From: Sphagnum compactum
Lineage: Eukaryota
Length of the DNA: 64,000 bases
NCBI GenBank assembly: GCA_965153455.1
Contig: OZ234493.1
Location: 248,001-312,000, forward strand
Direction of reading: 5' to 3'
The notes beneath the pieces were generated by a model, which searched no databases, was not told the origin of the DNA, and worked only from the letters and a program-made list of their open reading frames with translations. The translations under genes were made by a program, and so were the position numbers. Shown here piece after piece: positions 18,738 to 24,759 of this stretch. Position 1 is the first letter of the stretch. Each line of letters begins with the position of its first letter.

Positions 18738-20973
18738 GGTTTAAGGTTTAGGTTCCACGGACAGACTAATGTTCAGGGTAATGCAAACGTGAGAAAGACC
18801 AACAGATCAATCACCAACCCACTGCTGCATGTAGATCAGGGATTTACAGGTTCAGGCTGTTATCTATCCTGATTCCACAGGATTCTTGTGGATTTGAAGC
18901 ACAGCAAATGGTTTCTAAGTTTCTGCGTTTTGTTATGCTCTTAGACAGTTGAGTTTTGCAGCAGGATTGTGACAAGGGTTGGGATTTTGCTTGTGCACAT
19001 GCATGCATACATACATATATTGGGGTGTGGCGGTGGAGGGAGGGACTGCAGCAACTGTGAGCACTGCAGAGCCAAGAGCATGATGTCATTGGAAGCATCT
19101 CCACGGGAGGTTCTTGCAGTCTCGTGATTTTTTTCAAGCTGAGAGTGTGTACAGTGGTGTATCAGGTACTACTAATGTTTGCACTTTTTGTTGGCCATTG
19201 ATTTTGCATAGTAGATTTCTGTGTTGAGGCTTCCCTGGAAGCAAGAGGCTGCTGGGATTAGGACACCCCTCTATCTTGCAAATCAGGACTCAGTGCTCTG
19301 CTATAGATGATGATAACAGATTGTGAAATAAGGCTGATTCAGAAGGGCTCAAAAGGAAGTGCTCCGTGTTCATTGTGGCATCAATCTGAGGATGAAATCC
19401 ATGGCTGAAAGGTTTATATGTTTCAGGCACACATCAGGTCTTTTGGAAGATCACAACCAGAGTGAGTTACACATTGCTGCTGTCATCTGAATTTTCAGAA
19501 ATGTTGGTGCAGGTACTGTTGCAACTGAACACTCAGAGAAGCATTGAGTAATGGACAAGATGCCTGTTCATTAGAGATCTTCCTGCAGTGATTTTGCTTA
19601 ACAACATGTAGACTGTAGCAATAGAGACAAACTTCTTTGCCCCTTTCTCCAGAGAGGAACATCATCCCCGGCCCCCCGCCTTTCCCAGTCATGAAATTTT
19701 AGGGTGGGTTAGATTTCATGTAAGTAACAGTGCATTTTTTGGGGCAGTTCTTGCATGTTGAAAGTGTCGTATCCAGAGTAGGTGGCAGAGTTATGACTAG
19801 CAATGTTCAATCTCATTGCACACATACAACACACACACACAACCTAGTAGCTTTCATTCTTTGTTTCGAGTATTCTCCTCCCGCTTTTTAGCTCTCCAGA
19901 TCCAAGACAAAACCCCATTGTAGTTTTCTTTTCAACATTTGATGCTATATAATACCTTCCATTCAAGTTCTCTATTCCTGTTGACAGCTAGCTGCTGGCA
20001 CACCATTTATTTACTTTGTGCCACTTTGTTCACGCTTCATTCTCTCTCGTCATCCATTTTATCTATATCTTCTTTCCAGTTCATTCTCTTGCTGGCCATT
20101 TTATGTGTCTTCTTTGTGGTTCATTCTCTTGTCCCCCATTTCATCTATCTTGTGTGTGGTTCATTCCTCTCGACGCTTGACCCCCATTTCAACTATCTTC
20201 TTTGCAGTTCAAGCTCTTATGCTCCATTTTATCTATCTTCTTGGCAGTTCATTTTTCTTGCCCTCCATTCTATCTATCTTCTTTGCAGTTCGTTCTCTTG
20301 ACCTCCATTTTTTACAATCATATTTCTTCTGCTCTGATGATATATGTTAACAGCTTGCGATCATGATCCCGTATTTTTTTAATGTTTTCTTTCCCAGTCC
20401 AACATTTCTAGGATTAGCATTTTTAGTGTTTACAGTCTTAATTAGTGTTTACAGTTTACTTCATTTTGTATTATTATTCTTGGGAGTGAAGAGTCTTCTA
20501 TTGTTTAGAAGTAATCAAACAGCTGTTCAAGTTCAGAGGTATAGAAACAGTTTTTTGACTACAGCTCTGGAATTCCTAATTCCTTGTCCTCCTCCCGGTG
20601 TCATAAATCTGCAGCTCTCAGACATTTGATGATTTTTTGTTGCAGGATTTTTGACATAGAGCCATGCTGGGTGAGGTGTCTGTTAGGAAAATTTGGGGTG
20701 AGTAATACAAACCTCTCACGTTTCAATGAAATTAGAATCCGTGACAGATTTCTAACAAAAAAACTAACACTCGTTTTTAAACTTCTTTTTTGTTTTGGCT
20801 TTTGAAAGCTTTTTGTATATTTTTTACAGGAGTTGTTGGGAGAGATAGAAAGTATTCATTTAGCAAGAGTGTCAAGAAAGGATTTATTAATCTTTTGTTT
20901 TGGGCGGGGAGGGGGGGGCAGCTCTATCTTTTGAAAAGCTTTTTAGAGTAGAGAGTGAAGAGAACAAGATTTG

Positions 20974-21066
20974 GTTTGAAAGTACCGATGGTATTGTTGG
21001 CAGACAATGAGGTAGAACTCTTCTTTGGTTTGAATTTGTGCTTGCATGTGTGAGAGAGAGAGAGGG

Positions 21067-21110
<44 letters not shown>

Positions 21111-21343
21111 TGTGTGTGTGTGGTGGTGGTGTTGCTGCAACATGTGACTTGATGTACTTATGTTTGAAAGTACCGATCGTATTGTTGGCAGACAATGAGG
21201 TAGAACTCTTCTTTGGTTTGAATTTGTGCTTGCATGTGAGAGAGAGAGAGAGAGAGAGAGAGAGTGAGTGAGAGAGAGAGAGAGAGTGTGTGTGTGTGTG
21301 TGGTGGTGGTGGTGTTGGTGCAACATGTGATTTGATGTACTTA
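20974..21343. repeat. Tandem duplication (~185 bp x2) carrying a composite (GA)n(GT)n(GGT)n microsatellite
   Basis: TTTGAAAGTACCGAT...GCAGACAATGAGGTAGAACTC...GCATGTG occurs twice, each time followed by the microsatellite. Confidence 0.9.
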
Positions 21344-21799
21344 TGTACATTTGAATCAAATCTGTGCAACATTCCTGCCACAAAATCTTGACAATTTTGT
21401 GAAATCAATAAAATAAAAACAAAGGCAGGGTTAGTTCAAGGTGGAAACTTCTTGTTGTTCTTTGAGCTTTGCACAAAGAAAGTGGCGTAACATTGTAAGA
21501 TTTTGTTTCACAAGATCTTTGCTTCGCTTGCACAAAAATGTCATTTTGCATGTTGTGATAATTCTCTTCAATCCCCTTTTCTAACCAAATTGCAACTATG
21601 GCGTTGCACTTTTTGTTGAATTCCTTGGCACAACAATTTACAAAAATTCCCCGGCATTTCACCAAGAAACTGTGAAGGTGGTGGTGTGGTAAACAACTTG
21701 ATGAGATGTAGACAACCTTGTTGATGAATAAGTGCATAATTTTTGAACTTCATCTTCCAAAACCTCAACAAAGGATATAGAGACTTTCCATCACTCTTT

Positions 21800-22900
21800 T
21801 CACCAGAGAGAATCCTTTTGAATAGCCCTATCACGCAACATCTTGTCCACTCTCGAATGATTTTCCTCATATCTATCGAGATTCCCATTCCAATCCCCGA
21901 GAAGATACAAATTCTTCTTGCATGTGATTTATCACGCAACATCTTGTCCACTCTCGAATAATTCTCCTCCTCATATCTATGTCCAATAATTCCCATTCCA
22001 ATCCCCGAGAAGATACAAATTCTTCTTGCATGTGATTTATCGCAGTGCTCCTACCATATATTTGTTGCTAATCTCCTTGTGTTTTCCAATCCCAACAGGG
22101 CCTTTTGAGAACCAAACATGAGAGCCAACCTTCCATTTATTTACTCAATGGCATAAAGAAAAGAGGATGAAGTTCTCATCATCATCAGGACCTTAAACAG
22201 GTCTACGTGTACCATCATCAATTTTTGGAAGGTTTCAATGATGTCTTCCATTGGGCAATCCACAAGCTTCTTTAGATTTTGCACATCACAACAAATAACA
22301 TCACCCTTCTAATTTTTAGAAAGCCCAAGGCTATTTGGAAGCATTCTCCCATAACAATGTCAATGTTAAAAAAAAACTCCTTCCATAATAGCATGCATCT
22401 CCGCAACTATACAAACAAAGAAGTTCCGTGTGCAACAAACCACTAGGAGCAATAACTAGAATCTCTTCATCTAGAAGTGTCAAAATATCAGGATCTTTCA
22501 TTTGCTTCCCAAGTCTGATGGCAAATTCACACATCACGACCTCATCTCCATCGATCTTAGCCTTCTAATAGCAAACATGTTGAACTTTTCCTACAGTTTG
22601 CTTGTTTCAATTGATTTCGAATTACATATTCCCAGTATTAGTCATCCAATTGCATGCATCACAAACCAAAGTGATTGGGGTGGATACATACTACCATCTT
22701 CTTTATTCACTTCAAGGATCAACAAGGACAACATCTACACAAATCCTCAAATTTCCTCTTGCTTTGGCAAATCTTCCATAAACAAGCTAATATTGTAAGC
22801 TTTTTTTGCATGCCAATCATCAAAAGTCTTTCAAGCCCCCTTATCAACATGATAGCTCCTTTGATGTCCCACTTCATTAATTGGTGCATAGTTTTTTTAT
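21800..22900 (-). mobile_element. Decayed Crypton-like DUF3504 tyrosine-recombinase pseudogene
   Basis: Frameshifted motifs in the expected order: KTFDDWH...LLILEVNKEDGSMYPPQSL (~22670-22730), LGKQMKDPDILTLLDEEIL (~22455-22520), VWFSKGPVG (~22090-22115), ISNK..RSTAINHM (~22030-22070) and GMGIIGHRYEE (~21970-22000). Many stop codons. Confidence 0.7.
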
Positions 22901-23905
22901 TAAAGAAATGTTCGTGTGTCTCCATTTCAAAAAAAATAGATTTCCAACAATATTTTTTTTAGAGGTAAATTAAGAAACAAACCTCCATGAACATCATCCT
23001 CTTTGTTCCTCAACAATTCTAGTACAATGTAAACAACATCATGAATTGGAAAAAAACACGAAAAAAATAGTAACCATAAGGAACCATAAAAAAACAAAAA
23101 GCGAAAGTGAAAAACATGTTTACTTTATTCTTTTCACCAATGGCAAATAAGATTTTTTTTCAATTTGTAATATAAAAAGTTGGAAAATGTTCCCCCTAAA
23201 ACTAGAAAAAAAATCAAATTTACATTAAAATTTTGCTTTTAAAAAAATTCCCAATTTTAGGATAAAAACAATTGTCAAAAAATAAATGATAAACTTTATA
23301 TAAATCCCACATCACAAGCTTCCAACACCACAAAATTTCAATAGAATCTGAATAAAAATCATTAAAAATATGGGCTTCAAAGTGTAAAAATTGCACGAAT
23401 AACAAATATATTATTTATATGTAAATGATGTCTCTTTTCTAATATACGTTAATTTAACATTTGACTTATATATATATTTAAACTAAATTTGTGCAACTAT
23501 TATGATATAGTTTAGCATAAAATTATGCAATTTTTGTACAAAACTATGAAAATTAGATTTCACATAGAATTTGCGTGAACCTAGGAGGTTTAGTAAATTT
23601 GTTATGCAATGTTGGACAAATAATTGATTTATTTGAATATACTCATAGGTAAATTTATATGCATATGGCCATCATTCTCTTCTTCTTTTTATGGTTTCAT
23701 TAATATTTTCAAGGGATAGTAAACCCTAAAACCTATTATCAGATGTGGCAAACTTTCAAAAGCCCTAGTTGCCAATTGGCACATTTTTGTTTTCTAATAT
23801 CACCATTACTTTAAACAATCATTGTTTCATTTACCAAAACCATTTTGGTGCAACTAATTGTGTAGTAACAAAAGCTTTGAAGCTAATTTTGATTTATTTG
23901 TCTTA

Positions 23906-24119
23906 GAGTGCATTCACACCTAGTGTTCAATTATTGTTAAATGAAAATCTAGGTGACATCTTAGGTGGTACCCAATGTTAAATGAATGATTGTTTAATAT
24001 TAAATGAATGTTAACTTAACATAAAATCTTTGTGTTAAATAGGTTTAGGTTCTAAATGACTAGCTTGGTGTTAAAGGACTTAGTACTAGAGTTTTTAAAA
24101 CCAAGTGTGAATGCACCTC
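23906..24119. mobile_element. MITE, ~214 bp, with TIRs GAGTGCATTCACACCTAG / CCAAGTGTGAATGCACCTC and TA on both flanks
   Basis: Imperfect ~19-bp terminal inverted repeat, AT-rich interior, TTA on the left and TAA on the right. Confidence 0.7.
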
Positions 24120-24759
24120 TAATGTGGCGCAAGGCTATGGACGTAAGGTGATCTTGTAAGTTGCGAATTTAACAAATTTGCAATGTCATTTTCATTTGTT
24201 TCTAACTTTTAACTTTTTCCCCATTTACCCAATTTTTGTGGCATTTGTTATGAATCATGTGTTGTAATTGTAAATTGTAACATGTTACATCAACATTGCT
24301 TGTAGCTTGCATGTTTTGTGTGTGTTAGCCACTTACGCCATGGCCTGTTGATGCTTCAATTCTAATGCATAGTGCATAATGCACATTACTCTTTCTTATT
24401 GCACATTATTGCTCACATTCTTTTATTGTTGCTAAGTTATTGTTGTAACACACTATATCTTTTGTTGCTACACATTGCTTTCTTTTGCTAATGTTATGCA
24501 TTGTTCTTTCTTGTTGTTACAAAGCACTGCTCTTTCTTGCTACTACTACATGTTATTCTCTTTTGTTAGTATGCATAATTCTCTTGTCTGTAATTGTTGC
24601 ATAGTTCAATGATCAAGCCACCTTTGGTGCCTCTTCAAAACTTCAGATTTCATAGTTTTTTTCCTCAAGTGGAGTCAACAAATGGCAATGTAACATCTTC
24701 TAACCACTACACCCCACCTTAGATTCTCTTTATGAACCTCCTTTTGAGGCTAACCTTTG

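Follow-up and report, generated by a model that had tools for sequence, protein, structure and literature searches.

Cryptons, DNA transposons of the tyrosine-recombinase type, are rare, and in the literature that we searched their recorded hosts are fungi, animals, oomycetes, diatoms and green algae, and not land plants; that search, by title and the beginning of the abstract, lay outside Repbase Reports, subscription journals and supplements, and it found no land-plant Crypton described. We asked whether a 64,000-nucleotide stretch of Sphagnum compactum DNA (contig OZ234493.1; hereafter the window, with all coordinates counted from its first letter) carries the remains of such an element, as a preliminary description made from the letters alone had proposed for the interval 21800-22900. 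We give a probability of roughly 0.8 to the reading that this locus holds a Crypton-type tyrosine-recombinase gene, now dead and decaying neutrally, with a QRICH1-like N-terminal domain and a DUF3504/Phage_integrase-like catalytic domain, from a land-plant family whose intact members have active sites with a lysine in place of a histidine. We further infer that the ancestor of the gene was a mobile Crypton DNA transposon.

A decayed recombinase gene on the minus strand

The region was aligned with P0035 (P numbers label the proteins of this analysis), an intact Riccia sorocarpa protein of 551 residues, using our own protein-to-DNA aligner, which allows frameshifts, codon gaps and long jumps. 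Residues 37-476 of P0035 aligned with 22881-21564 on the minus strand at a score of 365, with 146 identities in 390 pairs, against 51.6 +/- 7.2 (maximum 72, n = 60) for shuffled versions of the same protein, a z of 43. A second reference, P0036 (Riccia sorocarpa, 548 residues), scored 316 against 52.1 +/- 7.2 for shuffles, and with P0035 the maximum over 36 other stretches of the window was 79 and the score of the plus strand of the same region 44. Since the final 55 aligned residues (P0035 421-476) are weak, we set the conserved core of this relic of a tyrosine-recombinase gene at 22896-21718, with weak homology onward to 21564. Near copies, described below, share sequence with the region down to about 21410 in tblastn searches, and the region is present once in the window.

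A hidden Markov model (HMM) built from 15 distant relatives only was run on 3832 six-frame pieces of the whole window. The five best of the 3832 pieces all lie in the relic, on the minus strand and in the order of the profile, and two of these five (E = 0.018 and 0.4) are in a frame that had not been used for finding the relatives. All the peptides quoted in the preliminary description were likewise recovered on the minus strand, in three different frames, within the following stop-to-stop pieces: 'LLILEVNKEDGSMYPPQSL' in 22642-22734, 'LGKQMKDPDILTLLDEEIL' in 22331-22564, 'WFSKGPVG' and 'ISNK' in 22037-22144, 'RSTAINHM' in 21873-22067 and 'GMGIIGHRYEEENYSR' in 21568-22050. The relic proved to be longer than the interval given there, and a tandem duplication of 108 bp had been missed. 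The parts of the relic are as follows:

21718..22896, minus strand: decayed coding region of a DUF3504/Crypton-type tyrosine recombinase, equivalent to P0035 about 37-419; a near copy, P0005, carries the N-terminus as far as 22896
22573..22881, minus strand: N-terminal QRICH1-like, presumed core-binding domain, in one frame with five stops, containing 'LLILEVNKEDGSMYPPQSL' (tblastn, HMM)
22387..22434, minus strand: box I region with the catalytic arginine changed to cysteine, 'FFVCIVAEM' against 'FFIRGVAEL' (R210) in P0035 (P0035 alignment)
22210..22326, minus strand: hairpin-lysine motif 'SKN*K', with a stop at the tryptophan, and the 'VDCPMEDIIETF' motif (HMM, tblastn, alignment)
22061..22138, minus strand: 'VWFSKGPVGIGKHKEISNK', with the conserved W..PVG motif and the lysine replacing the first box II histidine (HMM E = 0.018, tblastn, alignment)
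21946..22058, minus strand: remainder of box II, 'YGRSTAINHM...' with the arginine kept and 'GMGIIGHRYEEENYSRVD' with the histidine kept (P0035 alignment)
21829..22041, no strand: tandem duplication, 108 bp x 2.0 with 91% matches, inside box II (Tandem Repeats Finder)
21718..21853, minus strand: conserved C-terminal segment 'RDRAIQ.RILSGEKSDGKSL..EVLEDEVQKL' (P0035 about 376-419)
21410..21717, minus strand: weakly conserved or non-conserved tail and 3' flank common to near copies (tblastn)

In tblastn searches the N-terminal domain is matched by P0008 (E = 2e-19), P0009 (E = 2e-14) and P0012 (E = 7e-11), and the family HMM matches it at 22645-22734 with E = 1.1e-6. The hairpin-lysine region is recovered by the same HMM at 22144-22308 (E = 8.2e-6) and by residues 12-56 of P0028 (summed E = 9.4e-12), the segment 22061..22138 by P0028 77-94 and P0012 241-271, and the C-terminal segment by P0004 72-146 (E = 1.7e-15) and P0007 43-122 (E = 1.4e-20). 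Further downstream, P0011 59-77 corresponds to 21466-21410 (E = 1.9e-4), and the matches of P0004 and P0034 extend to 21612.

Counted in the P0035 alignment, the decay of the relic amounts to eight in-frame stops and 15 frame segments with about 14 frame changes. The idea that all frame shifts run in the same direction, as serial 1-nucleotide deletions, is contradicted by this alignment and was dropped. About 16 residues of the relatives are absent between the PVG motif and box II, and a 92-nucleotide jump in the alignment falls at the tandem duplication, the two units of which (21829-21933 and 21930-22041) are 90.2% identical by self-blast; this duplication arose after the death of the gene. 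The relic keeps the equivalents of the hairpin lysine, Lys339, Arg342 and His365 of P0035 and loses the box I arginine and the tyrosine, the position of the nucleophile being aligned to a valine, with a tyrosine sitting three residues upstream. The window copy thus lacks the full catalytic set R-K-H-R-H/W-Y, with Arg read as Cys and Tyr aligned to Val, and is predicted from its sequence to be an inert relic rather than a working recombinase. In a polyA RNA run, of which about 12% of the reads were examined, no read fell at 20907-23720, and a gene at 19500-19900 was covered.

The near copies have in common with the relic the deletion of about 16 residues, the valine at the tyrosine position and the reading 'RVDKML' in the remainder of box II (found, for instance, in P0011), and carry different frameshifts. 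They therefore go back to a common ancestor with the window copy and decayed separately.

Relatives among land plants and the lysine of box II

An exhaustive phmmer search with P0002, one read-through frame of the window copy, recovered 28 proteins at E<=0.001; a word-indexed protein search with the same frame gave nothing at E<=10. One group among the 28 consists of the near copies, short open reading frame (ORF) fragments 56-81% identical to the window, and the other of longer proteins, about 26-37% identical, of which the named ones are from Riccia sorocarpa, Riccia fluitans and Diphasiastrum complanatum. Profile searches added P0035 (a 'DUF3504 domain-containing' protein in UniRef) and P0036, the intact ORFs that the preliminary description had suggested looking for among the copies, along with a Calypogeia fissa protein and the Physcomitrium patens protein XP_024365967.1. 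The family profile also matched P0061, a protein whose host is unknown, at E = 4.2e-8 in 5.8 billion sequences. In Riccia sorocarpa at least six gene models lie on four chromosome-sized contigs, some of them truncated; R1sor_003432 and R1sor_010268 are among the less decayed copies. The C-termini of the Riccia proteins P0035, P0036 and P0009 (about 512-550 in P0035) form a repetitive aromatic and charged tail, with repeats of the type ..F.EY.RFK.FQ.., which was modelled as one long helix; no counterpart was seen in the relic or in other relatives.

The intact members read R-K-K-R-H-Y at the catalytic positions, which in P0035 are R210, K242, K339, R342, H365 and Y374, five of the six being canonical. 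Lys339 stands at the place of the usual first histidine of box II, and a lysine is found there in every family sequence that covers box II. The lysine before the catalytic arginine, which the preliminary description had read in the window copy, is therefore a trait of the family and not damage. In a profile-profile comparison with hhalign the family aligned with P0061 (probability 97.7%, E = 2.3e-12) over 277 columns, from the N-terminal domain through the nucleophile tyrosine, pairing FFIRG/IRG with WRG, NKSGR with NHSSR, GHRD with GHSN and KY with PY; it is from this pairing that the intact plant proteins are seen to carry the six residues listed above. P0061 itself passes the cut-offs of both relevant Pfam profiles, with 36.1 bits for PF00589 (Phage_integrase; cut-off 27.1) and 32.9 bits for PF12012 (DUF3504; cut-off 29.7).

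The DUF3504 profile matches seven of the 17 family proteins scanned at E<=0.13. One of the 17, P0053, passes the gathering score (32.7 against 29.7 bits), and the six other matches lie under the cut-off with E from 2.7e-5 to 0.13; among these P0036 and P0035 span nearly the whole profile, P0036 covering 3-161 of its 162 positions. The sole Pfam match of the window's own pieces is the QRICH1 domain PF25561 at 22642-22734 (E = 0.01 and 0.08), below its cut-off of 30.8 bits. This domain is also the best Pfam match for most of the sub-threshold rows, which include this window piece and four family proteins (E = 0.047 for P0008, 0.0057 for P0054, 0.037 for P0057 and 0.022 for P0058, all under 30.8 bits). 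The top clusters in an Atlas feature search with P0035 score 0.98 and carry DUF3504, Phage_integrase and QRICH1. By these sequence comparisons the family is assigned to the DUF3504/tyrosine-recombinase group, and the proposal of a decayed, DUF3504-like recombinase gene of Crypton type in plant nuclear DNA is borne out by the alignment score, the plant relatives, the score of P0053 and the alignment with P0061.

We also compared the family with known structures. A search of PDB sequences with the family profile returned only chance rows (E of 2 or more). A first structure model from 13 rows had a predicted local distance difference test (pLDDT) score of 55, too poor for use, and an AlphaFold 2 model of P0035 from a 97-row alignment reached a mean pLDDT of 63.9 and fell below 50 in the box II region. 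For the latter model Cre accounts for all of the 13 top Foldseek rows shown (E = 0.026-0.27), and in VIA-align the 12 best rows are again Cre (Z of 7.0-8.2 over 205-226 residues), followed by XerA, lambda Int and Tn1549 Int.

Two members depart from the intact pattern. P0057, the Physcomitrium patens protein XP_024365967.1, is the product of LOC112277641, a RefSeq gene model with isoforms and 14 member sequences, and P0058 represents 74 member sequences; the two are 40% identical over 252 residues, and both are open ORFs that end before box II and the nucleophile tyrosine. They may be a domesticated derivative, or gene models cut at an intron.

Copies, possible mobility and the history of the locus

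The window carries plant-type genes, for an F-box and KIB1-4 propeller protein, a protein kinase and a DUF2043 protein, and is therefore plant nuclear DNA. Contig depth over 21510-23117, at a likeness of at least 80%, equals flank depth in three DNA runs, and the locus is found again in a sister organism, B, with 33 differences over 1973 nucleotides and a 1-nucleotide deletion at 22127. A chance resemblance, or contaminating fungal DNA in the assembly, is extremely unlikely. Glomeromycota might be thought of as a source, as they live in plants and as parts of the Glomhopper paper describe DUF3504 elements as abundant in them (PMC13465315); against this and against chance stand the position of the relic between plant-type genes, its nearest relatives, which are plant proteins, the equal depth in three runs with contigs crossing the junctions, and the z-score against shuffles. 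In run X1 a single contig of low depth (4.86, where the genome has about 28-36) connects 20827 with 23085 by way of 31 different letters, which take the place of the 2257 bp containing the relic. No direct repeat was seen at 20827/23085, and the contig could be an empty or deleted allele, or come from another organism.

In other bryophytes the family has multiple and mostly decayed copies, and it is on these relatives, not on the window's own genome, that multi-copy dispersal rests. A scan of metagenome contigs with an alignment of the N-terminal domain, in which 86 of 160 pattern matches were confirmed, gave 80 loci, 71 of them matching P0035. At identity of at least 97% they collapse to 47 distinct loci, decayed and on moss-like contigs. 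Exons in the flanks of some loci are 70-85% identical to window genes, and the host is therefore a related plant. Every one of the 30 full-length copies is broken, with 3-13 stops and 1-14 frameshifts. The copies are 72-93% alike over 1.3-12.6 kb, with three pair groups sharing units of about 4-4.5 kb and many megablast pairs ending inside both loci; some of the long pairs at 90-93% could be homeologues, or related species within one sample. A blastn comparison of the window element with the 80 loci gave nothing at E<=1e-5. The metagenome copies (loci L001-L079) share two intron-like gaps, one after P0035 residue 105 ('YPP.S') and one near 367-375, just before the tyrosine (examples are L031:2376-2537 and L001:9587-9687). 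Many ORF-called fragments stop exactly at 'YPP.S', and the window copy is continuous across the first of these sites.

In a quick tree of 48 rows, where the rows for broken copies were made by alignment to P0035 with a slight bias towards P0035 possible, the 30 metagenome copies form one clade (support of 100 in the Shimodaira-Hasegawa-like approximate likelihood ratio test) with short internal and long terminal branches. The window relic falls outside it, on a long branch unresolved with Riccia and Calypogeia, and the Physcomitrium and Diphasiastrum proteins and some unnamed ones make up another group.

The shape of this tree bears on whether the relic might instead be the pseudogene of a host gene family, derived from a recombinase and domesticated long ago, whose copies arose through plain gene duplication, with no mobility at any time in this lineage. 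Forty-seven loci, with all full-length copies broken and in one clade of short internal and long terminal branches, are more in keeping with the sudden spread of a selfish element than with selection acting on a gene family, and the Riccia sorocarpa models, of which there are at least six on four large contigs, are partly truncated. A host gene would account for the conserved position in organism B of a relic that is single-copy at identity of at least 80%, for the lack of transposon ends, and for a Physcomitrium RefSeq gene model without box II and the tyrosine, to which the protein representing 74 sequences is 40% identical. The intact Riccia members, however, keep the six catalytic positions, unlike the domesticated animal DUF3504 genes as portrayed in passages of Kojima and Jurka (PMC3212892). 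On balance we regard this explanation as improbable.

A second alternative traces the relic to the recombinase of a DIRS/Ngaro-type retrotransposon, or of a large DNA virus that had integrated, and appears to us very unlikely. Such elements also have tyrosine recombinases with an N-terminal DNA-binding domain. The minus strand of the window flanks, over 2.2-2.4 kb on each side, shows neither reverse transcriptase nor RNase H, nor any further Pfam domain at E<=0.1, and 10 flank ORFs of four metagenome loci have no transposon-type domain, the only match being a weak one to BTB (E = 0.017), under the cut-off. Within the flanks and ORFs scanned, which are all that this comparison covers, the recombinase is the only recognisable protein, which argues against a DIRS-type element. 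The same is true of the units of about 4-4.5 kb shared among copies in three pair groups, and of the match of the family to DUF3504, which recombinases of DIRS and Ngaro do not match even at E of 100 according to part of the same survey (PMC3212892).

Several results weigh against a dead copy of a Crypton-type gene as the reading of the locus. As depth over the locus is the same as in the flanks, a close second copy, at DNA identity of at least 80%, is absent from the window's genome as sampled by the DNA runs, and the window copy yielded no defined termini, direct repeats at the ends or target sites. Pfam searches with eight single-frame pieces and three read-through frames of the window found no DUF3504 and no Phage_integrase match, and PF00589 has no direct match in the 17 family proteins (12 scanned at E<=1 and five at E<=0.1), its link to the family being the indirect one through the profile-profile alignment to P0061. 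Foldseek gave no match at E<=0.001 for the P0035 model, which, with a Z of about 8 or below and low pLDDT, is a middling case, consistent with a recombinase fold and not proof of it. The near copies may be orthologues in related species instead of paralogues, the ancestor that they share with the window copy may already have been defective, and the annotated Physcomitrium gene makes an origin from a host gene possible. Of the preliminary description, the decayed recombinase gene and its family are borne out, and the mobile 'element' is inferred, as termini, target repeats and a sure empty site were not found. The profile test that it proposed is negative for the window pieces and, at the cut-off, positive for one relative, P0053, and the dispersed family that it anticipated is seen among relatives, in the 47 distinct loci and the Riccia models, the window's own genome holding a single copy at the identity given above.

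If the locus is a dead copy of a Crypton-type gene, its ancestor would have moved by recombinase-mediated excision and by site-specific integration, a short terminal sequence recombining with a target that matches it. The window copy would have been inserted before the split of the two sampled organisms and would have lost its function afterwards, through the change of the box I arginine to cysteine, the loss of an aligned tyrosine, eight stops and about 14 frame changes, to be inactive today. More tentatively, one may picture the non-seed land plants (liverworts, mosses and a lycophyte) as having an old Crypton-type transposon lineage of their own, marked by the lysine in place of histidine and by conserved introns, which may still be mobile in Riccia, with its intact ORFs and catalytic residues, and which mosses may have domesticated on one or more occasions in genes of the LOC112277641 type, without box II and the tyrosine. 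Such a lineage, which we put forward as the less probable outcome, would be the first family of tyrosine-recombinase DNA transposons described in embryophytes and, if real, would widen the host range of these transposons. The interest lies in a land-plant DUF3504/Crypton-type branch that is intact in Riccia, dead in the moss-like copies and perhaps present as a truncated gene in Physcomitrium. The family would offer a natural variant of the active site with lysine for histidine, for which the intact Riccia genes are candidates, and the Physcomitrium gene, truncated in its catalytic part, invites comparison with the domestications in animals (ZMYM, QRICH1, KCTD1). The value of the window copy is that of a pointer to the family and of a dated insertion common to two organisms.

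The surroundings of the locus have features of their own. At 23908-24118 there is a unit of about 210 bp whose summed contig depth in three DNA runs is 2.1-3.8 x 10^4, where the flanks have about 20-40; each run places about 100 contigs on it, a large number of them loose-ended, and a few polyA RNA reads fall there. It is probably a very abundant short repeat, and depth is raised across the whole of 23118-24122. Just 3' of the relic, at 20974-21346, lies a tandem duplication of 188 bp x 2, both units of which contain a run of (GA)n, at 21052-21108 and at 21238-21286. Some CryptonV families are described as inserting into microsatellites (PMC8869645), but (GA)n runs are common elsewhere in the window, and their nearness to the relic may mean nothing. 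A tandem array of a 40-bp unit, with 5.9 copies and 72% matches, occupies 20066-20310.

Comparison with known systems

Passages of Kojima and Jurka (2011; PMC3212892) list fungi, animals, oomycetes and a diatom as hosts of Cryptons and derive DUF3504 from Crypton recombinases. The Glomhopper paper calls DUF3504 'widespread in Opisthokonta', and its passages on plants and bryophytes, supplements aside, contain no plant family (PMC13465315). Elsewhere, active CryptonF elements are known in Chlamydomonas, as stated in part of PMC9977147, and sections of PMC8869645 describe CryptonV as cnidarian and some families as inserting into microsatellites.

In its domains, a putative QRICH1-like one at the N-terminus and a DUF3504/Phage_integrase one, the plant family resembles the CryptonA/DUF3504 Cryptons of animals (sea anemone, sea urchin, molluscs and others), which have this combination and are the kind to which the nearest Atlas clusters belong. 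It differs from them in the lysine at the first box II histidine, in a DUF3504 match that is mostly under the cut-off, and in a PF00589 match that is never direct; the likeness is one of domains, Atlas clusters and the hhalign match to P0061.

The Glomhoppers, which are CryptonA elements of Glomeromycota, resemble the plant family, as far as the paper's descriptions used here go (PMC13465315), in that their DUF3504 recombinases keep the catalytic residues, numerous copies are truncated, and forms with introns occur beside forms that have none, and their hosts live in contact with bryophytes. Compared by description, they differ in their fungal host and in keeping the box II histidine. CryptonF-1_cRei of Chlamydomonas reinhardtii is a Crypton of the green lineage in which, according to portions of PMC9977147, a short motif at the terminus recombines with a target that matches it and clean excisions have been seen, the same mechanism as the one envisaged here; in contrast to the plant family it belongs to the CryptonF group, lives in a green alga and is active, again by description only. 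The domesticated DUF3504 genes KCTD1, KIAA1958, ZMYM2-4, QRICH1 and WOC, in the account given in parts of PMC3212892, have the domain pair that is proposed for the plant family, and the Physcomitrium gene model is without box II and the tyrosine, as they are. In animals each of these is a conserved single gene that lacks the catalytic residues, whereas the plant family has members with intact sites and dozens of dead copies.

Among proteins of known structure, Cre (PDB: 5u91, 3c28, 1kbu and others) is the best match of the P0035 model and is aligned over both domains, with residues 45-339 of the model against 41-289/293 of Cre, at an identity of about 10% and a Z of only 7-8. In the numbering of Cre, the spacing Arg-23-His/Trp-9-Tyr is identical in the two, R342-H365-Y374 in P0035 and R292-W315-Y324 in Cre, and His289 of Cre stands at the position of Lys339 of the family. 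A lysine at the position of the first box II histidine is also found in poxvirus topoisomerase IB.

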